Below, piece after piece: positions 19,447 through 63,537 of a DNA stretch of 64,000 nt. The position numbers were made by a program, and so were the translations under genes. Position 1 is the first letter of the stretch; the number at the start of each line of letters is the position of its first letter. The DNA is taken from the NCBI GenBank assembly GCA_964572155.1, contig CAZNDZ010000001.1, positions 518,518 through 582,517 on the forward strand, written 5' to 3'. The DNA comes from an uncultured Planctomycetales bacterium. Its GTDB lineage: Bacteria > Omnitrophota > Gorgyraeia > Zapsychrales > Fredricksoniimonadaceae. The notes under the pieces were generated by a model that worked only from the letters and a program-made list of their open reading frames with translations, was not told the origin of the DNA and searched no databases.

Positions 19447-19574
19447 AAAAGTTCCTTCAGTTTAAGTTGCATGTTAAAGAATTGTGCAATTATAAGGGAA
19501 GCGGGCCGCTTTGACAAGGGCTTGTTTGAAAAATGCCCATTTGCCTATATTTATATAATGTGGTATCTTTTGGG

Positions 19575-22500
19575 ATGGTTCGAAAGCTGTTTTCCCTAAT
19601 ACTATGTGTGCTTTTAATGCAAAGTCCGCAACTCCATGCAGATCAGCTGGTCCTTCCTGCCGGTCAGGCAGGTTTACCGCTGCCTGGAACCATGGTGCAT
19701 TTAAGTCCTTCGGTCAATCCTCCAATCCTTAAAGGTATGAAGGTTTTTAAGGATAATCCGTTCCGTTTTGATTTTATTATGGAACATGGCCAAGACAATG
19801 TTCAAGCCAATACCTTGGTTAAATATTTCTTAGCTGCTTTAACCACACCCGAACAAGACATGTGGGTTAATTTAAGTCCCTATGAAAAAGATCGCATTGT
19901 GCCAGACGGTTTTGGTCAAACTCAAATGGGTCGCGACCTTTTGGCGCAAGATTACATCTTAAAACAAATCACCGCGTCGCTGATTTATCCTGAAGATGCT
20001 GTAGGTAAAGAATTCTGGCGCCGTGTATATGCCACAAGCGCGAATAAGAATATCCCAATCAATACATTTAATAAAGTTTGGATTGTCCCCAATAAGGCTG
20101 TAGTTTACGAGAATGCTAAAGCAGGTACAGCCTATGTTGTTGAATCCTCGCTTAAAGTTTTAACAGAACAAGATTACTTAGCCAATCAACGTAATAAGTC
20201 TGAAGAAAACAATAATCAAATCATCAAAGATGTGGTCATTCCACAATTAACCAAAGAAATCAACGAAGGCGCCAATTTTGCCCAATTGCGTCAAGTCTAC
20301 AATGCCTTGATCTTAGCAACATGGTATAAGAAGAAAATCAAAAACAGCATCCTATCCAAAGTTTATGCTGATCAAAATCGGATAGCCGGCGTCAATATAG
20401 ATGATCCAGAAGAAAAACAAAAGATCTACGCACGTTACTTAGAAGCATTTAAAAAAGGCGCGTATAACTATATTAAAGAAGACACAGACACGCTTGGCGT
20501 GTCTGGACCTAGAAAGTATTTTTCTGGCGGTATGAAGATGGATATGACGATGATGCAAGTTGTTAATAATGCTCAAGTTAAACCCCTCGATCAAGCCATG
20601 GTAATTAAGGTAAAGCTAGAAGTGGCTTCTTTATTGATGAGAGTTGCTTTGGGTTTAAGTGAACAAGAGATGAGTTTTGTTAATTATATCAAATCGCTAG
20701 ATCTAAAAAATGGCAGTGACATCTTGGCTATTGGGGCAACACCAGAAAAAGAATTTCGATATGGCAAGCAACAGGTGCGTGTCGAGTTATTATTTGCTGC
20801 GCTCGATCATCATGTGACGTTATTTCAGCCATATTGGAATGCATGGGATACGGTGCTGGATCAATCTCCTTGGAAGAAGGTTAGAAAGATCGATTATTTC
20901 AAAGAAAAGTTTACCAGCGAGAGCAAAATCGCAAAACGTTCTCAAGATGTTGTTGTCATGATGGCGGTAATGTCGGCATTTACAACAAGCATTCCTTATG
21001 AGAAAAAGCTCGACCTGATGCAAGCCGCGTTGGATGCGTTAAAAGACGATGGTTATTTGATGTTGGGTTGGTACAACTGGGGTACATATCAAAATGGTGA
21101 TATTTCAGGAGAACGAGAAGAGTTTGATAGAACAAATCGAGTGATTGAGGCATTTAAACAAAAAGGCTATGTTTTTAATTTAGATAAAGAAGGTAGCAAT
21201 ACGGCGCATCGATGGCATGTGTATAAAGTAACAAAACCCGATTCAGCCATGGCAACACCTGCAGAAGAGGCGGCTAAGAAGCGTCAGCAGGAAATGGAAG
21301 AGATGGCGGTGAAGGTAGCGACAGAGATGCGAGATGAATGGGGCGCATATCTGCGTAAGAAGAATGATTCCAATTTGAACTATCGCATTGAGAAAGCCTT
21401 GATTGATCCTGTCAAAGGCATCGTTTCGAATTATCTATTAAAGAAAATAGGGCGTCCTCAAGCGATCAGAGAATTGTATGATTTAGGTATTAATAGGCGA
21501 TTATCAAATTCTATGTTGGATTGGGCTGGGAATTTATTTTATCGTGCCATTGATGTTCAAAATAAAACGCTAACGTTACAGGAACAGGTTGTACCATTCA
21601 CATTTGATCAAATGGGTTTAGGGATTAATAAAACAGAGGCAAGGGCTATAACGGCCGTTTATACCGAATATTTAAATTTAAGTGAAGGTCAAAGTGTTGA
21701 GGTGGAGCGATATTTAGTAGGTGATAGGGATTGGCCTTATTATGATTTAAATGAACAGAAGTTATTAGATTCCATATGGATGGATGTGAAGTATAAAATG
21801 TCTGACGATGCATTTGGAGAATTCTATAAAAAAGAAATGATAACAGATATCAAAAAGCCAGAGACCGTGGCTTTTCTTAAGGCACAAGGATATTCTGATA
21901 AACAAATTAACGAGATGGCCAAAGATGCAGGCGTCTTATGGAAGCGTTGGGAATTAATTGCGGCGGAAAGTAAAGAAAAGGATAGAGCGCAAGTGGCGCA
22001 AGATTGGTTAAAACGTTTAGATGGCATGGTGTTTGAGGGGAAGAATGGCAAAAAGTATCAGATGATTAATAGTCATTCGGCCTTATACCCCGAGGAGTAT
22101 TTTATTTTGAATGAAATGGATGCGGATAACAACATCGTCCAACATAATGCAGGGTATTTTAATATCACCATCAAGGATCAGCTGATTATCCTTCATGGTT
22201 TTGCGATGCACCGCATTGAAGATCGTAAGCAATCTATTTTAAGTCAGATATTACAAATATTCCCCCAAGGGTATGACATTGAGTTTGAAGATATGACCAA
22301 TCTTCCGACGTTGAGAGATATGTTGCAGGGGATGTTGAATCAAAATTTTGAAGGCAAATTGAAGCAACGTTTAGAATTGTATGCATCGCAAAGTCCTTTG
22401 CTTTCTGAGAAATCGCTCGATGACGTCGTGATGTCCAAAGAAGAACATCAGGCATTGATGAAATTGTTGGTTGATTATCGCGATTTATCAAAACAGCCAA

Positions 22501-22889
22501 AAGCAAACTTGAAAAGCCTTGAAACAATTGCCATGGAAGGTTTCTCTGGAAAAATTCTCGGTGGTGGAGGCATAAATAGCCCAGTTCGCATAGAATTCAA
22601 AAAAATCAATGACCTTGATGTTGTAAGCCTTTATGTGAAACGTACTAAAGATTCAGCCCAACAGGTTGAAACGCCACTACAACGCGGGGGTATTGATTTT
22701 AATGCGGATAAGATGCAATTAGAGGCGCAGCATGATGATGGGGGCATTGATTTTCAACTGGATCCGGCTCAAATAAAGCAATTTCAGGATGTTGAAGGGT
22801 TTACACCCAATATTTTAAGCATGCAACCCATTCCTGCTGGCCAAGATGGCATCAATGTGGTTAAGACGTTCTTAGGGATGACCCTTTAA
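19575..22889 (+). CDS. Giant secreted protein, paralog 1 (unrecognised family)
   Basis: Signal peptide 'MVRKLFSLILCVLLMQSPQLHA'. The N-terminal module from about nt 19650 to 20520 is paralogous to the N-terminus of the 40556 gene. The C-terminal roughly 65 aa, with 'GGIDF' twice and 'DPAQIKQFQDVEGFTPNIL', is paralogous to that gene's C-terminus. Start chosen at ATG 19575 because the conserved upstream element ends there. Confidence 0.8.
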   Translation: MVRKLFSLILCVLLMQSPQLHADQLVLPAGQAGLPLPGTMVHLSPSVNPPILKGMKVFKDNPFRFDFIMEHGQDNVQANTLVKYFLAALTTPEQDMWVNLSPYEKDRIVPDGFGQTQMGRDLLAQDYILKQITASLIYPEDAVGKEFWRRVYATSANKNIPINTFNKVWIVPNKAVVYENAKAGTAYVVESSLKVLTEQDYLANQRNKSEENNNQIIKDVVIPQLTKEINEGANFAQLRQVYNALILATWYKKKIKNSILSKVYADQNRIAGVNIDDPEEKQKIYARYLEAFKKGAYNYIKEDTDTLGVSGPRKYFSGGMKMDMTMMQVVNNAQVKPLDQAMVIKVKLEVASLLMRVALGLSEQEMSFVNYIKSLDLKNGSDILAIGATPEKEFRYGKQQVRVELLFAALDHHVTLFQPYWNAWDTVLDQSPWKKVRKIDYFKEKFTSESKIAKRSQDVVVMMAVMSAFTTSIPYEKKLDLMQAALDALKDDGYLMLGWYNWGTYQNGDISGEREEFDRTNRVIEAFKQKGYVFNLDKEGSNTAHRWHVYKVTKPDSAMATPAEEAAKKRQQEMEEMAVKVATEMRDEWGAYLRKKNDSNLNYRIEKALIDPVKGIVSNYLLKKIGRPQAIRELYDLGINRRLSNSMLDWAGNLFYRAIDVQNKTLTLQEQVVPFTFDQMGLGINKTEARAITAVYTEYLNLSEGQSVEVERYLVGDRDWPYYDLNEQKLLDSIWMDVKYKMSDDAFGEFYKKEMITDIKKPETVAFLKAQGYSDKQINEMAKDAGVLWKRWELIAAESKEKDRAQVAQDWLKRLDGMVFEGKNGKKYQMINSHSALYPEEYFILNEMDADNNIVQHNAGYFNITIKDQLIILHGFAMHRIEDRKQSILSQILQIFPQGYDIEFEDMTNLPTLRDMLQGMLNQNFEGKLKQRLELYASQSPLLSEKSLDDVVMSKEEHQALMKLLVDYRDLSKQPKANLKSLETIAMEGFSGKILGGGGINSPVRIEFKKINDLDVVSLYVKRTKDSAQQVETPLQRGGIDFNADKMQLEAQHDDGGIDFQLDPAQIKQFQDVEGFTPNILSMQPIPAGQDGINVVKTFLGMTL

Positions 22890-22921
22890 GAATATGCCTT
22901 TACAATTCAAGCCTTAATATA

Positions 22922-22927
22922 TATAAT
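22922..22927 (+). promoter_or_regulatory. Candidate -10 element (TATAAT) upstream of hisG
   Basis: Exact TATAAT 56 nt upstream of the hisG ATG. No convincing -35 box. Confidence 0.3.
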
Positions 22928-22954
22928 GCGCGCTACTAAAAACTTTGATTGGGA

Positions 22955-22974
22955 CCTGCCTGCCGGCAGGCAGG
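22955..22974. repeat. Perfect 20-bp palindrome CCTGCCTGCCGGCAGGCAGG in the hisG 5' region
   Basis: Read directly from the sequence; it is its own reverse complement. It lies 10 nt upstream of the hisG ATG. Related 17-mers, CCTGCCGGTCAGGCAGG, occur at 19656-19672 and 40643-40659. Confidence 0.9.
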
Positions 22975-22983
22975 ATAAAGAAT

Positions 22984-23871
22984 ATGTCTAACACGAAAAC
23001 AAAATTAAAATTAGGTTTACCAAAGGGAAGCTTGCAAGATGCCACCGTAGCCCTGTTTGAAAAAGCAGGTTTTAAAGTGGTTGTTTCTTCCCGTTCATAC
23101 TTTCCACAAATTGATGACGTGGAAATCGAACCTGTATTGTTACGCGCCCAAGAAATGTCTCGCTACGTCGAGGATGAGACTTTGGACTGCGGTATTACAG
23201 GCAATGATTGGATCCTAGAAAATCATTCTGATGTTGTGCGTTTAAGTGAACTCATGTATTCAAAGGCCACAACCAATAAAGTCCGTTGGGTCTTGGCTGT
23301 TCCTGAAAGCTCTTCGATCAAATCTGTCAAAGATTTGCAAGGCAAGAAAATAGCGACGGAAGTTGTCAATGTTGCCAAACAATATTTAGCCAAACATAAA
23401 GTGAAAGCAGATGTGGAATTCTCTTGGGGTGCAACTGAAGCGAAAGTTGCTTCTGGTTTGGTTGATGCGATTGTGGAATTAACCGAAACAGGATCGTCGC
23501 TGCGTGCCAATAAATTGCGCATCGTAGACACCTTGTGTGAATCAACCACCCAATTTATCGCCAATAAAAAAGCGGCGAAAGATCCTTGGAAAGCCAAGAA
23601 GATGGAACAAGTGATCATGTTGTTACATGGTGCGTTGGCTGCGAACAATATGGTTGGTTTGAAGATGAATGTCGCCGAGAAGAATTTAAACAGTGTTTTA
23701 AAGACGCTGACAGCATTACGCAATCCAACCATTGCTCCTTTAACCAAAGAAGGTTGGGTGGCGTTGGAAACTGTGATTGATGAAGGTACGGTGCGTCAGA
23801 TTATCCCTGCATTGAAAGACGCTGGGGCTGAAGGCATCATTGAATATTCACTAAATAAGTTAATTTACTAA
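22984..23871 (+). CDS. hisG: ATP phosphoribosyltransferase, long form (HisG)
   Basis: '[11 protein letters not shown]', '[31 protein letters not shown]' and the C-terminal regulatory domain. Start set at ATG 22984 ('[17 protein letters not shown]'). Confidence 0.85.
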
Positions 23872-40477: not shown

Positions 40478-40555
40478 AATATTATTAAGTTTCGTCCTTG
40501 ATCCTCATTCTATCAAAAACTAGCGTTTATATAGATAATATGGTATCTTTTGTTC

Positions 40556-43500
40556 ATGCCTCAGAAGTTTTGGTCTTTAATTTTGATGATATGTTTATTG
40601 CCCATGCCGCAAGTCCATGCAGGAGAAAGTGTTATAAGCCTGCCTGCCGGTCAGGCAGGCCTGCCTGTGCCTGGGACCATGGTTCATTTAAGTGCGCCAA
40701 CTAACCCTGTTTTGCTTAAAGGGATAAAAGTTCATCAGGATAATCCATTCAAATTTGAATTCGTAATAGATAAAGGCACCGTAGAGACGCCATTGATGGC
40801 GTCTAATACAACGATCGAAAATGAATCTAAAAAATTAATCAAATATTTTCTTGCCGCGCTAACCATCCCTGAAAAAGATCTATGGGTTAACTTAAGTCCC
40901 TACGAAAAAGACCGCATTGTGCCTGAAAGTTTTGGCCAAACCCAAATGGGCCGCGACTTACTCGCCCAAGACTATATTTTAAAACAAATCACCGCAAGTT
41001 TGATTTATCCAGAAGACACGATTGGCAAAGAATTCTGGCGACGCGTCTATGAAGCCTCCGCAGACAAAAATACTTCGATCAACACCTTTAATAAAGTCTG
41101 GATTGTTCCTAATAAAGCCAAAGTGTATGAGAATGCAAACGCAGGCACAGCCTATGTTGTTGAATCTTCCCTAAAAGTTTTAACAGAACAAGATTACGTC
41201 GCCACAAACAAAAATACCGTACAGACGCGATTTATCGCGTCTCAATCAACCCAAAATATCATCAAAGACATTGTCATCCCGCAATTAACCAAAGAAGTCA
41301 ACGAAGGCGCCAATTTCGCGCAGCTGCGACAAGTCTACAATGCCTTAATCCTAGCAACGTGGTACAAGAAAAAAATCAAAGACAGCATTCTGGCACAAGC
41401 CTACGCCGACAAAAACAAAATCGCAGGCACCCAATATCAAGACAATTTAAACCCAGAACAAATTTATGCGCGTTATCTCGAAGCGTTTAAAAAAGGCGCG
41501 TTTAATTACATTAAAGAAACTGACATGTCAAATGGCATAACCGTTCCAAGAAAATATTTCTCCGGCGGGGCCAACCTTCAAGTTTCGCAGGCGATGACAG
41601 CATCAGACAAAGAGCCAGTAACGACGGGTCATGAGTTTGTGGTTGAAGCAAAGCTTGAATCACCATCCATGAAAGATTATCGTGAAAGGTTAAAAAATGA
41701 ATACTATCATGCGCTCTCCACAGGGCAAAAAGTTATTGATATCACCGCATATTTAGGGTCTGCGGCAGTAAAAGGATTATTTAATGATGGATTTGTGTTT
41801 GAGTTGGATGGTTTTAAGCCAGGAAATATCTCAAATGGGCTTGGTCATGGAAAAGTAGAAGATCGGATTATTATGGAAGATCAAGGAGATCAGCGTATTT
41901 TTAAGCGAATTCGTAAGAATGCTAAATATCCTGATGGAAATATTGTTGTCTATTCTATTTGGCATAAGACACAAAAGAAGGATGAGCACTCGAATGGCAT
42001 GGTATGGGAAAGAGATTATGCACCTTTTGAAGATCGGAGCATAGATATTGAAAATAAATCCCCGTTTAATTCAAAACAGCGTTTTTATGAAGATATTGAG
42101 CGGGAATATAAAGATTTTCCTGGGACTATTGGCATTGCTAAGTTAATTTTTGAAGTTAATAAATTGGAATACAATAAATCAAGAATTGGATCGCTTGTTG
42201 GAAAACGATTACGTCCAACAAATTCTGATGGAAGCAGCACGTTTTCATTGATTAAAGGAAAGATTAAGATACCTGTTTTAGGTACAACTGATGATCTGCA
42301 TACATGGGATCCGGTCATTGTTAGTGAACGCATGGATGAGAATAGCTACGAATTTACTGTCCAGTCAACAACGGATGGCATGGAGCCTATAGAGCGTACA
42401 TTTCGTATAGGGAAAAAGACAAAACAGATAATGTGGAGGGGGCGCGGTAAAACTATTTATGTCATTGAACCTGTTGATCGGGTACCTGTGCAAGTGATGC
42501 AACGTTTGATTGACGCAAGAAAGCCTTTTAATGTTACACGAACTCTTGAAGCATTGAAAGCTATTGAAGGGCAAAATATTGATGTTACTGAAGACACAGG
42601 ACAAATTAAAGTATTCTTTGGAAATGGTGAGTTTTATCGGTGGGCTGTGTTAGGCATGCGGCAAGCTGGTTGGAAGGTTAAGGTGCTGGGAGCTAAGCCT
42701 TCTAGGACAGGTGATTCAATTATTCTTTCAATGATATTAAATAAGCTTAGTGGGCAACATGTTATCAAAGTTTTTGAGTTTGGTAAGAAGGTTGCGATTT
42801 CAAAGCGTGGTTTTAAACATTTTGTGATGGAGCCTGTTAAGTTTAAAGACCTTAGACAGGCGATGAGTGTGAGCGGTTCATATTTGAAAAACGATCTAAA
42901 GTTATTGAGTTTTGATATGACAAATACGATAAGAATCGTTTTTGCCGATGGTAATATTCGATCGAATAAGTATTTAGTATCTTATTCAATTAAACGTTAT
43001 CAGGAAAGATTTGGAAAGAAGGTTGCAGTGGGCGCTGGGCGTGTATTTCATCATGTTCAATTTGATAAAGACGAAGTTGATGATGAAGAAAATAATGCAA
43101 TGTTAGCAGAAGATTTCCCTCATCCAGGAAATAAAACCAGAGTAAATGAATTGAAAGTTGAAGCGCATGATTGGCTTGTTAAATTGCTTCGACGAGAATA
43201 TGGTAATTCGGTTGCTTTTGAGACGTTGGTTGATTCGGCAAAAGATAAGAGTTTTTATTTGGGGAAATTGGGTGCAGGGAAAATTGTTTTGCCGATTTAT
43301 GCGGACAAAGATTATACGCGGCAATTGTTAGATTCTTCTTTCTCGAAGAAGGCTGATGAGCGGTCTGGTTGGGAAACATGGTTGACGAATGTGCGTATGC
43401 TTCATGGTAGCGTCTGGTTTAATTTTGTTTTGATTAAACGAGAGATGGTTGATGGGGTTGAGCAGAAAAGAAAGATTGTGCAGGAGTATGTTGTTAATCC

Positions 43501-46500
43501 GTATATCACAAGGGATGTTCTTTTAATCGATGGAAAGGATATTGATGTTTTAGAAATTGTTAAAGCTGAAAATTTTCCGTCGCGCATGTTAAGTGCGTTT
43601 ATGTTGCGCCCTAATGACTTTGAGAAATTAAAGCCAATGATGTTGGCGTTACAGGGAAGCTTTTTTGGTTTGACACATACAGCAGGTGAAGTTCTTTTTG
43701 CTGTACCTAATAAGTTATATCCTGAAAAGAATTTATTCCTGATTGATAAGTCTGCAGGGGTTGAAGATAAAACACAATGGCATGCGGTTATGAAGAAAGT
43801 TAATTTTCACGATCAAGTGGTAGATTTTACGTTTGGTGTTAGTAAAGATGATACGGTATTGCCAGATGTGAATTTTCAAGCAAGCCCTGCGCTTCAAGAG
43901 CTTTCTGTTAATATTCATGATAAGCAAAAGACCCTAGATGTCATGACCTTAGACAAACGATTGGCTGTTAGAGGATTAGAAAAATTTGCATTATTCGGCG
44001 GCAGTGCGCAGGATTTGATTAAAAGTGGGTTCACCCTTAAAGGGACATCTTTTGGGGAAGTGAATGCCGCTGGTGCCGTGAGCATAACCCCTTGGTCGGG
44101 CCATTCTTATGCAGTGCCAATATCTGGTTTAAAAGATAATGGTGGTCGCGTAGCGATCATTGATGAATATATCTATACGTACTCGCAAGGGAATAAAATC
44201 CGTTATGAATTTACAGCATCAACAATAAAAGATGGAGAAATGCCGTTTCTTCGAAAGTTTATAGCTAGTAAAAATGTTGGCGATAGTTCGTTTGAATCTT
44301 TTGATATTCAGCCAGATGAATCATTTGATGCGCAACAGGCATTAGAAGCAACGTTAAAGCATATTCAGCGTTTGAATGGCGTGAAAATTAAAGTTACGAG
44401 TGGTGAGAATCCACGTCTAAGGGTTATTAATAGAAAATTCGGATTATATTTTCATTCCATATATTTTCAAGGTTTGCAGCCAGGAACCTATGATATGAAA
44501 GTTCAACAAAAAGGAAGAACTGGGGAGTTTAAAGTAACAATGAAAGGAATGAGAGAAACATTGATATATAGGATCAATGCTGATGAACAGCTAAATTTAG
44601 AGACAAATATCAGACCATCTGGCGACGATATTGGTCAAAACGAGTTTGATAAGTTTATATTAGATTTTCGCTCAAAACATCCGAATGATTGGGTTCAAGC
44701 AATACGACAGGATGATCAAAAGCTGAGGGTATATTGGAAAAGCAGTGATGGGAATATTTATCGCACCATTGTAACGGAAGATTTTCTAAAGAGCCTTGGA
44801 TATAGGAATGTTAAATTCAAATTACTTGAAGAAGACAGCAAAGAATATGCTTTGGTTAAGGATGCGATAGACACGAAAACCATGTATGCAACAAAGCATT
44901 TTTTGAAAGTTCAAGCGCAAGATGAATTCCCGCAAGAATATCTACGAAATAAAGAAGGTCTGAAGCGAATTTATGCCGCAACACCTGCGGTTGTTGGGCT
45001 TTCTCAATTGATGTTCGAAGGAATAAAAGGCAAGGAAAGCAAAGAGGTCTTAAAATCTTTAGTTGGTCAAACATTGCCCATTACAGATAAACAAGGAAGA
45101 AGTATATTTGCGATCTTTCCTAATTTTAGCATCAATTTATCGGTCATAGGAACAATGGAAGCAGGTTGGCAGCCTACGGTTTCAAAAGTTGGGATTAATG
45201 AATTAGGATATTTTGAATTTACCATAAGGTCGACGAAGGAAGGCAAAGTGCCAGTAGAGAGAACATTTGAAATAGGACGATTCAAGAAGAAATTCACATG
45301 GAATAATCTCGACGTATTTGTCTATAACTTAATTTCTGTTGAACGTATTCGTCTCATCATTTTAAAGAGGGTCGTTAAGAAGAAGGGGCGATTCAATGCG
45401 CCCAAAGTGAGTGTTTTGTTAAATCAATTAAGGGGTGTTGATTTAGGTCCTTCTTTACCGGGGGGGCAATTAAACATTTATCTATCAACAAATAAACGGA
45501 TGGCATGGTATTTTGCATCAGAAGCGGGTCGGACGATGCGTATATTAGATGCGCGTGTTAGTGACGCTAATGATTCAGTGCTTATTACGACATTGATTGA
45601 GCATACGGTGGGATCGTATTCAATACGAGTGTATGAACTAGGCAAAGAATATGTAGTGGTCAAGAAAGGCTTAGAACACTACACATTTAATCCTGTTTCT
45701 TTTAATAATCAAAATCAAGCAATACGGTTTATTAAGCCTGCCATCATTGGTTTAGATAAGCCTTTAGCGCGCGATCCATTTCTTTCGAATGTTGTTCTTG
45801 AGTTTCCGGATGTCTTAGAAAAAGAGAAGGTAGTGGTGATCCACAATGGAGAATATTATTCACTATTTCCAAAAGAAGAAAAAATGTATGTAGATCGAAC
45901 ATTCTCAGAGGTCAGAAGGGTTTTACAAGAAAGGGCTGTTCGTGATTTTATACAAGGTGATGCGTATAACGCATTGCCACTTAATCGAAGGCTAGGTGCT
46001 TTTATTAAGTTTATTCGCTCAAATGAATACTTTCATGGTGTTGGAAATATGGGAAAGATTTGGAATGCTTTACAGAAACTTGAGGATGAAGAACTTGAAA
46101 ATGAATTAGATTGGGGAAAGATTGGTGGATATAGCATTTTGTATAAAGATTATGAGCGGTTGGTTTCTATTTTAGAGCAAAAAGAAGTTTCTGGGTTCAT
46201 CGAAGAAAAGATAGTCAAGGGTCATATAATCCCTAAGTTAAGCATCAAGTTTTTGCGACGACATTTATTACAAGAACATGCTACTTTTATGTCCCGCATT
46301 CCATTGATGGATTTATACTTAGCCATCCCAATGCAATACCGCAGTCATTTTGCAAGACCAGACGCCGCCATGCTCACAACGTCTGAATCGAATACCGGTG
46401 GGATCGATCTAACAGCCGATCAAATGAATCTCCAAACCAAATCCCAAGATCAACAATCCATGGCCTTTCATATGGATCCAGCTCAGTTGGCTCAGGTGCA

Positions 46501-46576
46501 AAATGCAGAAGGGTTTGAGCCGGTGATTGTTAGTGTTTTGCCGTTGACTGATCTGCATGCGTTTTTGACGCGTTAG
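40556..46576 (+). CDS. Giant secreted protein, paralog 2 (about 2000 aa) with internal about 170-aa repeats (unrecognised family)
   Basis: Signal peptide 'MPQKFWSLILMICLLPMPQVHA'. N-terminal about 300 aa and C-terminal about 65 aa are paralogous to the 19575 gene. At least three internal repeat copies are anchored by 'YEFT-x-x-ST-x-[DE]G-x-x-P-x-x-R-x-F'. Confidence 0.8.
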   Translation: MPQKFWSLILMICLLPMPQVHAGESVISLPAGQAGLPVPGTMVHLSAPTNPVLLKGIKVHQDNPFKFEFVIDKGTVETPLMASNTTIENESKKLIKYFLAALTIPEKDLWVNLSPYEKDRIVPESFGQTQMGRDLLAQDYILKQITASLIYPEDTIGKEFWRRVYEASADKNTSINTFNKVWIVPNKAKVYENANAGTAYVVESSLKVLTEQDYVATNKNTVQTRFIASQSTQNIIKDIVIPQLTKEVNEGANFAQLRQVYNALILATWYKKKIKDSILAQAYADKNKIAGTQYQDNLNPEQIYARYLEAFKKGAFNYIKETDMSNGITVPRKYFSGGANLQVSQAMTASDKEPVTTGHEFVVEAKLESPSMKDYRERLKNEYYHALSTGQKVIDITAYLGSAAVKGLFNDGFVFELDGFKPGNISNGLGHGKVEDRIIMEDQGDQRIFKRIRKNAKYPDGNIVVYSIWHKTQKKDEHSNGMVWERDYAPFEDRSIDIENKSPFNSKQRFYEDIEREYKDFPGTIGIAKLIFEVNKLEYNKSRIGSLVGKRLRPTNSDGSSTFSLIKGKIKIPVLGTTDDLHTWDPVIVSERMDENSYEFTVQSTTDGMEPIERTFRIGKKTKQIMWRGRGKTIYVIEPVDRVPVQVMQRLIDARKPFNVTRTLEALKAIEGQNIDVTEDTGQIKVFFGNGEFYRWAVLGMRQAGWKVKVLGAKPSRTGDSIILSMILNKLSGQHVIKVFEFGKKVAISKRGFKHFVMEPVKFKDLRQAMSVSGSYLKNDLKLLSFDMTNTIRIVFADGNIRSNKYLVSYSIKRYQERFGKKVAVGAGRVFHHVQFDKDEVDDEENNAMLAEDFPHPGNKTRVNELKVEAHDWLVKLLRREYGNSVAFETLVDSAKDKSFYLGKLGAGKIVLPIYADKDYTRQLLDSSFSKKADERSGWETWLTNVRMLHGSVWFNFVLIKREMVDGVEQKRKIVQEYVVNPYITRDVLLIDGKDIDVLEIVKAENFPSRMLSAFMLRPNDFEKLKPMMLALQGSFFGLTHTAGEVLFAVPNKLYPEKNLFLIDKSAGVEDKTQWHAVMKKVNFHDQVVDFTFGVSKDDTVLPDVNFQASPALQELSVNIHDKQKTLDVMTLDKRLAVRGLEKFALFGGSAQDLIKSGFTLKGTSFGEVNAAGAVSITPWSGHSYAVPISGLKDNGGRVAIIDEYIYTYSQGNKIRYEFTASTIKDGEMPFLRKFIASKNVGDSSFESFDIQPDESFDAQQALEATLKHIQRLNGVKIKVTSGENPRLRVINRKFGLYFHSIYFQGLQPGTYDMKVQQKGRTGEFKVTMKGMRETLIYRINADEQLNLETNIRPSGDDIGQNEFDKFILDFRSKHPNDWVQAIRQDDQKLRVYWKSSDGNIYRTIVTEDFLKSLGYRNVKFKLLEEDSKEYALVKDAIDTKTMYATKHFLKVQAQDEFPQEYLRNKEGLKRIYAATPAVVGLSQLMFEGIKGKESKEVLKSLVGQTLPITDKQGRSIFAIFPNFSINLSVIGTMEAGWQPTVSKVGINELGYFEFTIRSTKEGKVPVERTFEIGRFKKKFTWNNLDVFVYNLISVERIRLIILKRVVKKKGRFNAPKVSVLLNQLRGVDLGPSLPGGQLNIYLSTNKRMAWYFASEAGRTMRILDARVSDANDSVLITTLIEHTVGSYSIRVYELGKEYVVVKKGLEHYTFNPVSFNNQNQAIRFIKPAIIGLDKPLARDPFLSNVVLEFPDVLEKEKVVVIHNGEYYSLFPKEEKMYVDRTFSEVRRVLQERAVRDFIQGDAYNALPLNRRLGAFIKFIRSNEYFHGVGNMGKIWNALQKLEDEELENELDWGKIGGYSILYKDYERLVSILEQKEVSGFIEEKIVKGHIIPKLSIKFLRRHLLQEHATFMSRIPLMDLYLAIPMQYRSHFARPDAAMLTTSESNTGGIDLTADQMNLQTKSQDQQSMAFHMDPAQLAQVQNAEGFEPVIVSVLPLTDLHAFLTR

Positions 46577-46640: not shown

Positions 46641-46883
46641 ATGTCAAAGACGGTGACCATTCGTTTAAATGATGATGATTACAAACAAATTGCAAGTGCG
46701 GCACAGCAAGAACGTCGACCGATTTCAAATTTTATTACGCATACGGTGTTAGATGTTTTAGCTAGCATTAATGTGGTCGATGATGTTGAAATGCAGGAAA
46801 TTTTATCGGATGCGAGTTTGGTTAAGAAACTAAAACGTGGTCATGCGCAAGTAGCGACTAGAAAAGGAAAATTTGTTGAATAG
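46641..46883 (+). CDS. Ribbon-helix-helix (CopG/ParD-like) antitoxin
   Basis: 'MSKTVTIRLNDDDYKQIASAAQQERRPISNFITHTVL' is a beta-strand then helix-helix RHH signature. The ATG at 46641 follows an AAGGGGG RBS. It overlaps the toxin start. Confidence 0.6.
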   Translation: MSKTVTIRLNDDDYKQIASAAQQERRPISNFITHTVLDVLASINVVDDVEMQEILSDASLVKKLKRGHAQVATRKGKFVE

Positions 46884-47160
46884 TTTCCGTATATTTGAAA
46901 CGGAAGGTTTTCAAGAGGATTTAGACCAAATCTTGGGTAGTAAATTTGAAAAGGTTTATGAAAAGCTCAAATTATTTGTTTATCCGCAGTTGATGTCCCA
47001 ACCGTACTTTGGAAAAAATATTAAGAAATTAAAGAATTATAAACCAGACACATGGCGCTATCGCATTGCGGATATTAGGCTTTTCTATCAAATTGATGGG
47101 AAAGGAAAAGTTGTGCTTATGGCCGCAGCTGATTTACGAAAAGATGCATATAAGCATTAA
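46873..47160 (+). CDS. RelE/ParE-family type II toxin
   Basis: 'WRYRIADIRLFYQIDGKGKVVLMAAADLRKDAY' matches the RelE/ParE C-terminal core. A TTG start overlaps the antitoxin stop by 11 nt. Confidence 0.6.
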   Translation: MLNSFRIFETEGFQEDLDQILGSKFEKVYEKLKLFVYPQLMSQPYFGKNIKKLKNYKPDTWRYRIADIRLFYQIDGKGKVVLMAAADLRKDAYKH

Positions 47161-47231: not shown

Positions 47232-47260
47232 CCCTAAACCACGTTGGGTTTAGGGTTTTT
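47232..47260 (+). terminator. Terminator-like hairpin (9-bp stem CCCTAAACC/GGTTTAGGG, 6-nt loop, then TTTTT) within the lysS leader
   Basis: Perfect inverted repeat followed by a T5 tract. It lies between the consensus promoter and the lysS RBS (AGGAAGG). Confidence 0.5.
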
Positions 47261-47287: not shown

Positions 47288-48730
47288 ATGGAAACTAATG
47301 AAACTAAAGAAGTTAGGATAAAAAAATTAGACCGACTGCGTGCTAGTGGGATTGAGAGTTATGGGCATCAGTTTGTGACCACCCATGGGATTGGGGATAT
47401 ATTAAAGGATTTTAAAGAGGGTTTGCAAGTTGTGGTGGCTGGGCGTTTGATGGCGGATCGTGATCAGGGTAAGGTGCATTTTATGGATCTTATGGATCAA
47501 AGTGGGCGCATGCAGTTGTTTGCGAAACTCGATAATATGGGTGAAGCAGCTTTCAAGTTAATTGATGCATTGGATATTGGTGATATTTTAGGGATTGAAG
47601 GCGAAACATTTACAACCAAAACAGGTCAGCCATGTATTCGCATTAATAAATACCATGTGTTGGCTAAGTCCTTGCAAACATTGCCAGAAAAATGGCATGG
47701 CCTTAAAGACGTGGACATTCGTTACCGCCAACGTTATGTGGATATGATTGCTAATCCCGATGTTCGAGAAGTCTTTATTAAACGCAGCAAAATCATTTCA
47801 TTTATCCGTAAGTTTTTGGATTCACGTGGATTCTTAGAAGTTGAAACACCCATGCTTCAGCCGTTGGCGGGTGGTGCGCGTGGTAAACCTTTTGCCTCAA
47901 AGCATAATGCGCTAGATATGAATGTGTTTTTGCGCATTGCGCCAGAACTTTATTTGAAACGTTTACTCGTCGGTGGTTTGGAGAAGGTGTATGAGATGAA
48001 CCGTAATTTTAGAAATGAAGGTATCTCAACGCGCCATAATCCTGAGTTTACCATGCTCGAAGTCTACCAAGCTTACGGCAACTTTGAAGACATGATGAAA
48101 TTAACCGAAGATGTTGTTTCAGAAGCGGTTAAATCTGTGCATGGAAGCTATAAGATCACCTATCAAGGCAAAGACATTGATTTTACACCACCTTGGGAAC
48201 GTCGTTCTTTTGCAAAGGTGGTCAAAGAACATTTTGACATTAACCCTGAAGATACAGCGCAAGATATGTTAGAAAAAGTTAAAGCGCGTCGTAAGGGTGT
48301 AAAGGTTGATCGTTTGACAAAGTCAGCGATTATGAATATTGTCGAAGATGCCTTGGATGAAAATCCAACCGCTAATCCTGTTTTCATGTTGGATTATTTT
48401 ACATTCTTGTCGCCATTAGCCAAAGCTTCACCAAGCAATCCTGCCATTGCCGAGCGTTTTGAGTTTTTCATCGCAGGCATGGAAGTGGGCAATGCCTATT
48501 CTGAGTTAAATGATCCTCAAGAACAATTCAAACGTTTAACCGCGGATTTAGAAGATGATGTGGAAACAGGCAATCGCACCATTGACGAGGATTTCGTGAC
48601 AGCCTTGGAATACGGCATGCCACCAGCCGGTGGTTTGGGCATTGGGATTGATCGTTTGGTGATGCTCTTGACCGATTCACCGTCGATCCGTGATGTTATC
48701 TTATTTCCTCTTATGAAACCGGAGCAATAA
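47288..48730 (+). CDS. lysS: Lysyl-tRNA synthetase, class II (LysS)
   Basis: Anticodon-binding OB domain followed by class II motifs ('FRNEGISTRHNPEFTMLEVY' motif 2, 'GGLGIGIDRLVMLL' motif 3). Confidence 0.9.
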   Translation: METNETKEVRIKKLDRLRASGIESYGHQFVTTHGIGDILKDFKEGLQVVVAGRLMADRDQGKVHFMDLMDQSGRMQLFAKLDNMGEAAFKLIDALDIGDILGIEGETFTTKTGQPCIRINKYHVLAKSLQTLPEKWHGLKDVDIRYRQRYVDMIANPDVREVFIKRSKIISFIRKFLDSRGFLEVETPMLQPLAGGARGKPFASKHNALDMNVFLRIAPELYLKRLLVGGLEKVYEMNRNFRNEGISTRHNPEFTMLEVYQAYGNFEDMMKLTEDVVSEAVKSVHGSYKITYQGKDIDFTPPWERRSFAKVVKEHFDINPEDTAQDMLEKVKARRKGVKVDRLTKSAIMNIVEDALDENPTANPVFMLDYFTFLSPLAKASPSNPAIAERFEFFIAGMEVGNAYSELNDPQEQFKRLTADLEDDVETGNRTIDEDFVTALEYGMPPAGGLGIGIDRLVMLLTDSPSIRDVILFPLMKPEQ

Positions 48731-62086: not shown

Positions 62087-62090
62087 CGTA

Positions 62091-62112
62091 GAGACGCGAT
62101 TCATCGCGTCTC
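62091..62112 (+). promoter_or_regulatory. Intergenic hairpin (8-bp stem GAGACGCG/CGCGTCTC, 6-nt loop) between cysE and cysS
   Basis: Perfect inverted repeat read from the sequence. It ends 3 nt before ATG 62116 and 18 nt before the alternative start ATG 62131. Confidence 0.35.
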
Positions 62113-62115
62113 CTA

Positions 62116-63537
62116 ATGAAAGATGTTTTAATGTCGATCAAGATTTATAATTCCTTGTCTCAGAAAAAAGAAGAGTTTGTACCGATCAATGGCAACACCG
62201 TCAACATGTACACCTGCGGGGTTACTGTCTATGATCAATGTCACATTGGTCATGCCCGCAGCCTTTACGTCTTTGATGTGATCCGTCGCTATTTAAAATT
62301 CCGCGGCTATGATGTGCATTTTGTGCGCAATATCACCGACGTTGATGACAAAATCATCAATAAAGCCATTGAAACAAAACGTGAATCCAAAGATGTCAGC
62401 GAAGAGCAAATTAAACTCTATTATGATGATATGAAAAGCCTAGGCGTTACCCCAGGCGATGTAGAACCCAAGGCGACCGACAATATCCCTGAAATGATTG
62501 CGCATATTCAAGGCTTGATAGCTAAGAAACATGCGTATCCGTCAACTGATGGGGATGTGTATTTTGATGTGCGTTCTTTTCCAACCTACGGCCAGTTGTC
62601 TGGTCAGAGCATTGATCAAATGCTCGAGGGTGTACGCATTGAAAAAGATTCTAAGAAAAAAGATCCTCTCGATTTTGCGTTATGGAAATCAGCCAAGCCA
62701 GGCGAGCCATATTGGGACAGCCCATGGGGCAAAGGTCGTCCGGGCTGGCATATTGAATGTTCCTGCATGAGCATGAAACATTTGCATACACAAACACTCG
62801 ACATTCATGCGGGAGGCCGTGATTTAATTTTCCCTCATCATGAGAATGAAGTGGCTCAGTCTGAAGCGCTCACGGGTAAGATATTTGCAAAATATTGGAT
62901 TCATCATGGATTGCTCACCATCAACAGTCAAAAGATGTCAAAATCCTTAGGCAATTTTATCACCATCAAAGATGCGTTGGCAAAATACAGCGTCGATGAG
63001 GTTAAGCTATTTTTCTTATTCTCGCATTATCGCAGCAGCATCGATTTTAGCGAAGCCAAAATGGTTGAAGCCAATAAAGCTTTAGCCAAGTTTGATGTGC
63101 TGTTTTACCGTGCAGCCCAAATCTTAGATGGCAAGCAAGTCGAGCCTGTGCAAGCAGGATTTATTTCAAAATATAAGCATGAATTTATCGAGGCGATGGA
63201 CGATGATTTTAATACACCAAAGGCTTTGGCAGCGTTGTTCTGTTTGATCAATGATACCAATACTTATATTGATCAAAATAGTACCGATCCCAATTACTTG
63301 GGTGTGATTTACCATGCGGTTGATATCCTCGAGAATTTTGGCCGTAACATTTTAGGTTTATTTGCTAACGAAAAAGAATTGGTGTTAACCCCAGATTTAC
63401 AAGTTTTACTCGACGAACGCGTTAGTGCACGGCAATTGAAGAATTTCAAACGTTCCGATGAATTGCGTGACCTATTAAAGACCAAGGGTGTTTTGGTGGA
63501 AGATTCCAAGAGTGGTCAAACCTGGAGATGGATTTGA
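62116..63537 (+). CDS. cysS: Cysteinyl-tRNA synthetase (CysS)
   Basis: Class I 'CGVTVYDQCHIGHARS' (HIGH) and 'KMSKS'. The start could be ATG 62131 ('MSIKIYNSL') by alignment with the usual CysS N-terminus. Confidence 0.88.
   Translation: MKDVLMSIKIYNSLSQKKEEFVPINGNTVNMYTCGVTVYDQCHIGHARSLYVFDVIRRYLKFRGYDVHFVRNITDVDDKIINKAIETKRESKDVSEEQIKLYYDDMKSLGVTPGDVEPKATDNIPEMIAHIQGLIAKKHAYPSTDGDVYFDVRSFPTYGQLSGQSIDQMLEGVRIEKDSKKKDPLDFALWKSAKPGEPYWDSPWGKGRPGWHIECSCMSMKHLHTQTLDIHAGGRDLIFPHHENEVAQSEALTGKIFAKYWIHHGLLTINSQKMSKSLGNFITIKDALAKYSVDEVKLFFLFSHYRSSIDFSEAKMVEANKALAKFDVLFYRAAQILDGKQVEPVQAGFISKYKHEFIEAMDDDFNTPKALAALFCLINDTNTYIDQNSTDPNYLGVIYHAVDILENFGRNILGLFANEKELVLTPDLQVLLDERVSARQLKNFKRSDELRDLLKTKGVLVEDSKSGQTWRWI

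Follow-up and report, generated by a model that had tools for sequence, protein, structure and literature searches.

The hisG leader and its palindrome

Here, we analyze a 64,000-nucleotide stretch of DNA from an uncultured member of the Omnitrophota (contig CAZNDZ010000001.1; the whole stretch is called the window below) with respect to one short element, a 20-bp perfect palindrome in front of the gene hisG. The window has a GC content of about 42%, and nearly all of its genes lie on the plus strand. The palindrome, CCTGCCTGCCGGCAGGCAGG, occupies positions 22955..22974 in the 5' untranslated region (5'UTR) of hisG and is its own reverse complement, as an earlier note on this DNA had stated; we call it PAL. 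Because it is a perfect palindrome it has no orientation, and no strand is assigned to it. Our analysis argues that PAL is probably a dispersed selfish palindromic insert, similar to REPs (repetitive extragenic palindromes) and to the Rickettsia palindromic elements (RPEs), and that the hisG copy is one of many.

The gene hisG (22984..23871, plus strand) encodes the long form of ATP phosphoribosyltransferase, as judged from orthologues and from the Pfam domains HisG and HisG_C in its product. Its ATG at 22984 and the TATAAT upstream of PAL (22922-22927) had both been proposed before and are confirmed; the latter is part of a sigma-70-like promoter match, TTTACA-17-TATAAT (22899..22927, plus strand), in which 11 of 12 positions agree. 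PAL is found about 20-40 nt into a 5'UTR of about 49 nt and 66 nt 3' of the stop codon of the first of two giant genes, giant 1, which is located immediately upstream of hisG. The sequence of 22950-22986 is tgggaCCTGCCTGCCGGCAGGCAGGataaagaatATG. An AGGA at 22972..22975 on the plus strand, 8 nt 5' of the ATG, is the candidate Shine-Dalgarno sequence, and its first three bases are the final three bases of the PAL 3' arm. An in-frame TTG at 22945 extends the hisG reading frame through PAL (22945-22983). ATG 22984 is probably the real start and the longer open reading frame (ORF) returned by the ORF finder spurious, since an MS(N/K)T start is common to the HisG of the window and that of its nearest relative (locus L002).

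As RNA, PAL forms a stable hairpin (-13.9 kcal/mol alone). The fold of the hisG leader keeps this hairpin intact (z = -2.6), and three of the four Shine-Dalgarno bases (AGG of AGGA) are paired in it. Partial occlusion of the ribosome-binding site is therefore physically plausible, because the 3' arm of PAL includes the AGG. To this extent the proposal of an RNA hairpin that occludes the ribosome-binding site stands, but a dedicated hisG switch is not supported. An effect of PAL on hisG translation, which we infer from the predicted fold, would be an incidental by-product; a hairpin about 20 nt into the hisG mRNA may damp translation or stabilise the transcript. Known RNA leaders such as a His leader, a T-box or a riboswitch were not recovered: the Rfam scan at gathering thresholds returned only a tRNA, and a scan of 22800-23100 by E-value returned only a spurious lncRNA match. 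The 49-nt leader contains no run of His codons and no His-rich leader peptide.

Conservation of the palindrome at hisG

We examined 80 Omnitrophota hisG loci that were chosen without regard to the palindrome. PAL is absent at the hisG-leader position in all 80 of them. The promoter in its CTTTACA-N17-TATAAT form is widely conserved across these loci; the leader is not. As an observation in its own right, the extended -35 box CTTTACA with its 17-nt spacer is strikingly conserved among the hisG promoters of the phylum. The nearest relative, L002, has a HisG that is 91% identical, and its hisG leader is without the palindrome. There the spacer between TATAAT and ATG is 36 nt, compared to 56 nt in the window, a difference of exactly 20 nt. 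In several other close relatives (L004-L007, L010, L011, L013, L015, L016) the TATAAT is followed by 7-8 nt and then the ATG, and because so few nucleotides separate the two, the hisG mRNA is suggested to be leaderless in these organisms. The leader of L009 carries a different hairpin. Within the species the hisG palindrome is fixed, being present in four of four population contigs (98-100% identity). Since the L002 leader is 20 nt shorter and lacks the palindrome that is fixed within the species, the hisG copy is best read as a lineage-specific 20-bp gain and not as a conserved hisG control site.

These data bear directly on the view that PAL is a cis-regulator specific to hisG, either an operator bound by a dimeric repressor or a dedicated RNA hairpin that would tune histidine biosynthesis by covering the ribosome-binding site, with the giant genes sharing the binding site. 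The location between the -10 box and the ATG is indeed the classic one for an operator or a translational hairpin, the hairpin is stable and includes the AGG of AGGA, and the element is fixed in the population. We nevertheless consider such a regulator very unlikely, because the palindrome is missing from L002 and from the other hisG leaders, several of which are apparently leaderless, and the identical sequence occurs in hundreds of contexts unrelated to one another, among them atpA, secA and phage contigs. Furthermore, the leader matches no Rfam family and lacks both a U-tract and a His-rich leader peptide, and the copies in the giant genes are located about 80 nt inside the coding sequence and are translated. 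The operator suggested in the earlier note is thus not supported by the 80 loci or by L002, and a shared site for a regulatory protein is not supported either, given the many contexts of the same 20-mer that are unrelated to hisG and the giants. In an annotation of the window, the palindrome before hisG should be labelled neither operator nor attenuator.

Distribution of the 20-mer

Exact copies of PAL are present in three other Omnitrophota loci (L020, L054, L056) and near-variants in two more (L040, L065). The 1.29 Mb of Omnitrophota DNA contain 53 GC-rich perfect hairpins with a stem of 9 or more, and PAL is the one that recurs most often. In L020 it sits between convergent genes, nested within another palindromic element, and in L054 it stands in tandem with a one-indel variant. 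A scan of the viral collection IMG/VR with an N{0,1} pattern gave 65 stretches, which contain 39 distinct sites of the exact 20-mer; the contigs range in GC content from 0.38 to 0.68 and some hold 3-6 copies. Metagenome contigs added at least 120 stretches with at least 127 distinct contexts, mostly in contigs of 30-50% GC, and many of the contig names indicate groundwater filtrate and sediment samples. Viral and metagenome sources together give at least 166 distinct contexts; among the matches listed, 107 of 166 are in contigs below 50% GC. As controls, we scanned the viral collection with three palindromes that match PAL in composition; they gave 0, 0 and 1 stretch, compared to about 40 PAL sites there.

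A comparison of the flanks of these contexts revealed no conserved sequence around PAL. The carrier contigs hold many variants with one or two changes, as would be expected of a decaying repeat family. Among the matches listed, 14 of the 107 low-GC contexts, or about 13%, are inside ORFs of at least 200 codons, whereas 49% of random 20-nt windows are, and PAL is therefore mainly intergenic. Pfam searches on the ORFs of two multi-copy contigs returned phage tail and adaptor proteins only. In the collections of cultured plasmids and phages, the best places listed align either a longer part of the query (86-95% identity) or about 20 nt of it, with a mismatch; this result covers the listed places apart from 69 plasmid records in the band of at least 99% identity. 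Full-text literature searches found no paper with the 20-mer DNA string or with the peptides LPAGRQ, PACRQAG or CLPAGR. The earlier note had considered that the motif might turn out to be frequent and unassociated with hisG and the giants, the giants' copies then simply coding for their peptide. The first part is essentially what we find, but the copies in the giants are not simply coding, since they are an insertion (see below).

The position of some copies raises the question of a function at the 3' end of transcripts. PAL begins 66 nt after the stop codon of giant 1, and the L020 and L054 copies lie downstream of genes, in a space where two genes converge, or in front of a promoter. REP hairpins in E. 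coli protect the mRNA upstream of them. PAL might therefore be a terminator or 3' stabiliser of giant 1 transcripts that does not act on hisG, a reading to which we give a small likelihood. The bases after the stem are ATAAAGAATATG and contain no T-run, and the terminator scan did not call PAL; an intrinsic terminator is ruled out for this reason. Moreover, PAL is downstream of the hisG -10 box and would therefore be transcribed as hisG leader. A role at the 3' end is compatible with the selfish insert that we favor. For comparison, a terminator-like hairpin, CCCTAAACCACGTTGGGTTTAGGG, followed by TTTTT is found at about 47232-47260, just upstream of a class II aminoacyl-tRNA synthetase gene at 47288, and hence hairpins of this type do exist in the source genome.

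PAL copies inside conserved genes

The PAL copies within genes allowed us to compare filled and empty sites. Host genes encode AtpA, SecA, PheS, PurH, UvrC, LigA, a P-type ATPase, a class II aminoacyl-tRNA synthetase and a Y-family polymerase. Among the matches listed, 11 of the 14 coding copies are read in the LPAGRQ frame, the one frame that is free of Cys. The anatomy of the insertion is clearest in AtpA. The filled protein P0121 (508 aa) reads IINQKK, then DLPAGRQG, then NIKCVYVAIGQK, whereas relatives at 94% and 92% identity (501 aa) have the empty form IINQKKENVKCVYVAIGQK; NQKKENVKC thus corresponds to NQKK(DLPAGRQG)NIKC. At the DNA level, cagaaaaaaga runs directly into gaacgtaaaatgc in the empty site, and in the filled site into PAL and then gaaacattaaatgc. 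The difference is a clean 20-bp insertion without target duplication, plus an extra A in the adjoining A-run, and this +1 restores the reading frame. In the more distant AtpA P0131 (84% identity) the insert recurs with a single synonymous difference, and sequences intermediate between the two are without it.

The SecA that bears PAL is 82-84% identical to SecA of Paceibacterota and Nomurabacteria, from which it follows that PAL is present in Patescibacteria as well as in Omnitrophota. The same SecA loop is occupied in several lineages, either by LPAGRQ or by the decayed forms LPAGKQ, LSAGRQ and LPAGSQ, in two registers; the empty form is KDRLVKGETLDDILPEAF. For both proteins the empty sites came from database searches, which were used in place of a local BLAST for empty-site homologues of PAL-bearing ORFs among the retrieved loci that was uninformative.

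One could argue that the 20-mer is a linker or an assembler error brought into the assemblies. It is identical in many independent assemblies, and some library protocols make perfect palindromes. We regard an artefact as extremely improbable: reading frames are open across PAL with a strong bias for one frame and with compensating +1 changes, decayed and synonymous variants exist, the element is present in JGI, ENA, NCBI and Logan assemblies, and the control palindromes of equal composition are all but absent (0, 0 and 1 viral stretch).

The copies in the giant genes

Giant 1 (19533..22889, plus strand, 1118 codons as listed) likely starts at ATG 19575, which would give the signal peptide MVRKLFSLILCVLLMQSPQLHA. 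Giant 2 (40550..46576, plus strand, 2008 codons as listed) is its paralogue and likely starts at ATG 40556. Neither product has a Pfam domain. The 17-mer CCTGCCGGTCAGGCAGG reported for both genes is present at 19656-19672 and 40643-40659; it encodes PAGQAG within LPAGQAGLP in each, in agreement with the peptide given in the earlier note. That three copies exceed chance is likewise confirmed, as dinucleotide shuffles of the window give an expectation of 0 for each. The full shared unit is a 21-mer that consists of the hisG 20-mer and one central T. Giant 2 has the exact form, CCTGCCTGCCGGTCAGGCAGG (40639..40659, plus strand), and giant 1 the form CCTTCCTGCCGGTCAGGCAGG with one mismatch (19652..19672, plus strand). 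Both are in frame and encode LPAGQAG, in giant 1 just behind the signal peptide.

Downstream of the signal peptide the family has the consensus xLPxPG(T/V)MVxLS, and relative to LPxPG the 21 nt of the giants are an in-frame insertion. Deletion of the 21 nt from giant 2 restores ATA AGC CTG CCT GTG CCT GGG ACC ATG, that is I-S-L-P-V-P-G-T-M. In a set of 122 sequences, composed of the two window genes and 120 retrieved homologues, LPAGQAG-LP(V/L)PGTMV occurs only in giant 1, giant 2 and P0007, whose gene carries the same exact 21-mer. The frame of the insert starts as in the LPAGRQ copies (C CTG CCT GCC GG...) and the central T acts as a compensating +1. Thus, the giants carry an in-frame copy of PAL, and LPAGQAG would be the scar of an insertion rather than a motif with a function. 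The three carriers share about 65-74% identity, and all five synonymous sites inside the palindrome are invariant among them compared to a background of 37.6% (p about 0.0075, for a pre-specified site). This hints at constraint or homogenisation at the DNA level.

A second perfect palindrome of 16 bp, CAGGCAGGCCTGCCTG (40652..40667, again without strand), overlaps the insert in giant 2 and is made up of the insert's 3' arm plus the native LP codons. It yields a direct-inverted-direct arrangement of CCTGCCTG, in the order CCTGCCTG-CCGGT-CAGGCAGG-CCTGCCTG. An arrangement of this kind is the signature of an inverted triplication, and it could mean that the insert arose locally, by fold-back or template-switch copying of the native LP codons CCTGCCTG, and was then copied into the hisG leader by recombination, which would make it a scar of rearrangement among the giants. 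Giant 1 is directly upstream of hisG, and the 5' parts of the giant genes do recombine. We judge a local origin to be unlikely all the same. Exact copies of the 20-mer occur in intergenic DNA that is AT-rich, on phage contigs and within Patescibacteria genes where there are neither giants nor a flanking CCTGCCTG, and the empty and filled sites of AtpA show the complete 20-mer inserted in unrelated sequence. Apart from the palindrome itself, no similarity to the giants is seen in the flanks of the hisG copy. The TGGGACC that had been noted beside the hisG copy and the giant 2 copy is a chance match (3 in the window, 3.75 expected), and a remnant of the duplication or recombination of the giants is therefore not indicated at hisG.

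A strain with 98% identity (L272) provides a view on how the giant genes change. In the L272 orthologue of giant 1 the N-domain contains one more exact PAL, VYEN(LPAGRQV)PNEATAY compared to VYENAKAGTAY, with a net gain of 21 nt that is made up of the 20 nt and a C three bases downstream. It also carries a GTAGAGACGCGATTTATCGCGTCT insert in the giant 1 linker. Both inserts lie within a 5' tract that is 10-16% diverged, while the remaining locus differs by less than 1%; the tract covers the 5' ~500 nt of giant 1 (19662-20130 compared to L272:1-500) and ends at the PAL copy. This pattern indicates recombination or gene conversion of the giant 1 5' region among paralogues. Whichever way the inserts came in, the giant genes are a repeated landing place for such palindromes.

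Mode of spread and weight of the evidence

Taken as a selfish palindromic insert, PAL would land mostly in intergenic DNA and also in tRNA pseudo-copies and at in-frame sites of genes. It would have arrived recently in the hisG 5'UTR by a clean insertion of 20 bp, later than the separation from the closest relative that has been sequenced, and it is now fixed in the species. The copies in the giants would be an older PAL copy, made translatable by one extra central base (21 nt, hence the seven codons of LPAGQAG). They sit in an insertion-tolerant linker between the signal peptide and the conserved LPxPG, and are common to a few paralogues as a result of descent, of gene conversion or of both. 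The distribution of PAL, its insertion anatomy, its in-frame copies and its lack of conservation at hisG are shown here, and we infer from them that it is mobile or selfish.

Several observations weigh against this interpretation. Target-site duplications are absent: a flanking direct repeat of at least 4 bp is found in 3 of 43 contexts, all of them in locally repetitive DNA, and the insertion event itself was nowhere directly observed. No mobilising enzyme was found by phmmer with an approximate IS200 TnpA query across about 270 loci and the window, a search in which it has to be considered that RAYTs are distant from IS200. The apparent copy number is low, with one exact and two derived copies in the 64 kb of the window, and about 5 exact copies in the 1.29 Mb of Omnitrophota DNA, unlike classical REPs. 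AtpA proteins that bear PAL are not monophyletic. In an unbootstrapped neighbour-joining tree each of the three carriers of the giants' insert groups with insert-free paralogues, and recombination affects the 5' regions of these genes. The giants' insert may owe its distribution to recurrent gain, to gene conversion or to a precise loss between the CCTGCCTG repeats on either side, and neither for the giants nor for AtpA do these data distinguish among the three. For both L272 inserts, recombination with another paralogue is the probable route, and the extra PAL may not be a de novo insertion. Since the native LP codons (CCTGCCTG) beside the giants' insert equal the PAL arm, its origin may in part be local; the identity could reflect homology-assisted insertion or some local fold-back copying. 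Finally, the PAL hairpin may have a secondary use in hisG control.

A wider view is that PAL is the cis-acting unit, or the footprint, of an undescribed mobile system that crosses phyla and is shared by Patescibacteria, Omnitrophota and their phages. We regard this as possible but rather doubtful. Such a system would insert without target duplication into intergenic DNA, tRNA pseudo-copies and the essential genes of uncultivated bacteria with small genomes; spread by phages and handling by small GIY-YIG nucleases may apply. The hisG copy would then be a recent insertion and the giant secreted proteins a preferred landing ground. PAL might moreover be one of several "universal" palindromes, because the GAGACGCGAT..ATCGCGTCTC family of the window behaves alike. 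The unusual feature, as far as the matches tell, is that one invariant 20-mer is common to different phyla and to phage contigs.

If PAL is mobile, it would be about the smallest insertion unit known, a convenient natural marker of recent gene flow among uncultivated lineages and a route by which loops of essential proteins in reduced genomes acquire insertions. PAL is also an annotation hazard, since it can yield spurious frameshifts, odd tRNA calls and "LPAGRQ" peptides.

Comparison with known repeat systems

PAL and REPs are both short (20-40 bp), GC-rich, hairpin-forming repeats that are mainly intergenic and occupy many unrelated sites. Both sit in genes at times and both are transcribed as hairpins that are able to affect their neighbours; for REPs, genes for ligase, Uvr proteins and tRNA synthetases have been named as occasional hosts (PMC3733652), and protection of upstream mRNA by the hairpin is part of the same background (Di Nocera 2013, PMC3733652). 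REPs are defined by a GTAG or CGTC tetranucleotide at one end (Di Nocera 2013, PMC3733652). PAL, in contrast, has no such tag and no conserved flanks, while another palindrome of the window (62088-62112, see below) does begin with GTAG. The copy number of PAL per genome seems low, although some contigs of phages or the candidate phyla radiation hold 3-6 copies, and the 20-mer crosses phyla whereas REP families are species-specific. There was also no RAYT near PAL, as far as the weak test with the approximate IS200 query on about 270 loci and the window can tell.

The RPEs are a second point of reference. They were reportedly described by Ogata et al. in 2000 as selfish in-frame inserts in essential protein genes and in RNA genes of bacteria with small genomes, and PMC3733652 mentions them as well. 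RPEs are 100-150 bp long, are confined to Rickettsia and are tolerated in surface loops. PAL too lies in frame within conserved protein genes with the frame preserved. It differs in that it has 20 bp without conserved flanks and needs a separate +1 to keep the frame, and in that it occurs in Omnitrophota, Patescibacteria and phage contigs.

The G+C-rich clusters of yeast mitochondria are mobile palindromic islands of 30-50 bp, often with short flanking duplications. They invade intergenic regions, rRNA genes and protein genes (var1) and show presence/absence polymorphism, and to our knowledge they have no dedicated enzyme. PAL is likewise a GC-rich palindrome in AT-rich DNA that is present at some sites and missing from their counterparts, a comparison that is made by description and across different genetic systems. 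With the miniature inverted-repeat transposable elements (MITEs), which are non-autonomous and have inverted ends, PAL has in common that it could be regarded as a pair of 10-bp terminal inverted repeats without any intervening sequence. It differs from MITEs by the lack of a target-site duplication (3 of 43 contexts; none in AtpA), and no parent insertion sequence with these ends was found on the carrier contigs. A longer element with PAL arms as terminal repeats was considered and dismissed, as the candidates were just decayed PAL variants and no parent element emerged.

A second palindrome family and tRNA-associated loci

A second palindrome family, (GTAG)AGACGCGAT..ATCGCGTCT(C), has copies in the window at 62088-62112, 40785-40804 and 41223-41242, and in L272 near position 19790 of the window. 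The copy at 62088-62112 is GTAG-tagged and intergenic and fills most of the 29-nt spacer before an ORF at 62116. Three copies are in frame, two in giant 2 (VETPLMASN and TVQTRFIASQ) and one in the giant 1 linker of L272. The pattern GAGACGCGATNNATCGCGTCTC of this family gave 33 IMG/VR stretches and is thus also widespread. A literature search with the half-sites returned primer coincidences only. PAL itself is nested in or abuts another widespread repeat of the GTCATTGCGAG.../GTCATCCTGAGCG... type at L020:5860-6010, L165:683, L202:2046, L224:2548 and L236:5312. Because this is seen repeatedly, different "universal" palindromes appear to form composite clusters.

Small ORFs for GIY-YIG nucleases are located 5-70 nt from PAL in six loci (L136:454-816, L219:786-1136, L240:359-598, L196:4410-4703, L190:857-1117 and L236:4913-5245), the one in L136 with a Pfam E-value of 2.8e-15. 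In all of these except L236, a 5' pseudo-copy of a tRNA with PAL in or near the D-arm is followed by the GIY-YIG ORF and by an apparent second copy of this tRNA's 5' part; in L196, L240 and L190 ARAGORN calls an intact tRNA. Omnitrophota locus L033 (8450-8930) has the same layout at a tRNA-Gln, with other palindromes. The layout recalls T4 SegB, a GIY-YIG homing endonuclease encoded in a tRNA cluster (PMC2330249). In a tRNA-Met of the viral contig L122 (2239-2330) PAL forms an additional arm of 20 nt that follows position 45, and ARAGORN calls the tRNA with and without the insert. When PAL was removed from the tRNA-like contexts, this tRNA-Met was the only one that ARAGORN found complete; the D-loop cases are 5' pseudo-copies. 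Targeting of pre-existing hairpin loops by PAL is striking by eye (L163, L166, L169, L210 and the tRNA D-loops) and is not claimed here; the corresponding statistic is weak, since stems of 7 or more are seen at 2.5% of sites compared to 0.8% of controls and stems of 5 or more at 9.2% compared to 6.6%.

The giant gene family and its surroundings

The family to which the giants belong is very large: 4292 of 8000 scored candidates reached an E-value of at most 0.001, and all named ones are from Omnitrophica/Omnitrophota. Its members consist of a signal peptide, a conserved N-domain of about 330 residues without a Pfam match, a variable middle part and a conserved C-terminal motif, GGID...GF.P. 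The hypervariable middle holds unrelated enzyme domains depending on the member (methyltransferase, PRTase, kinase, HEAT repeats and others), and at least 8 paralogues are present on one 1.34-Mb contig. Near the C-terminus of giant 1 (22833-22849) the sequence CCTGCTGGCCAAGATGG encodes PIPAGQDG, and the distant P0043 has PLPAGQAG at the equivalent place (residues ~1016-1022). This stretch may be a second, decayed insert derived from PAL.

In the 711-nt gap that follows giant 2, positions 46641-47160 encode a ribbon-helix-helix-like protein, with weak Pfam matches to NikA-like and RHH_5, and a ParE-like toxin whose match (E = 4e-4) falls short of the curated cut-off. These two genes likely form a type II toxin-antitoxin pair.

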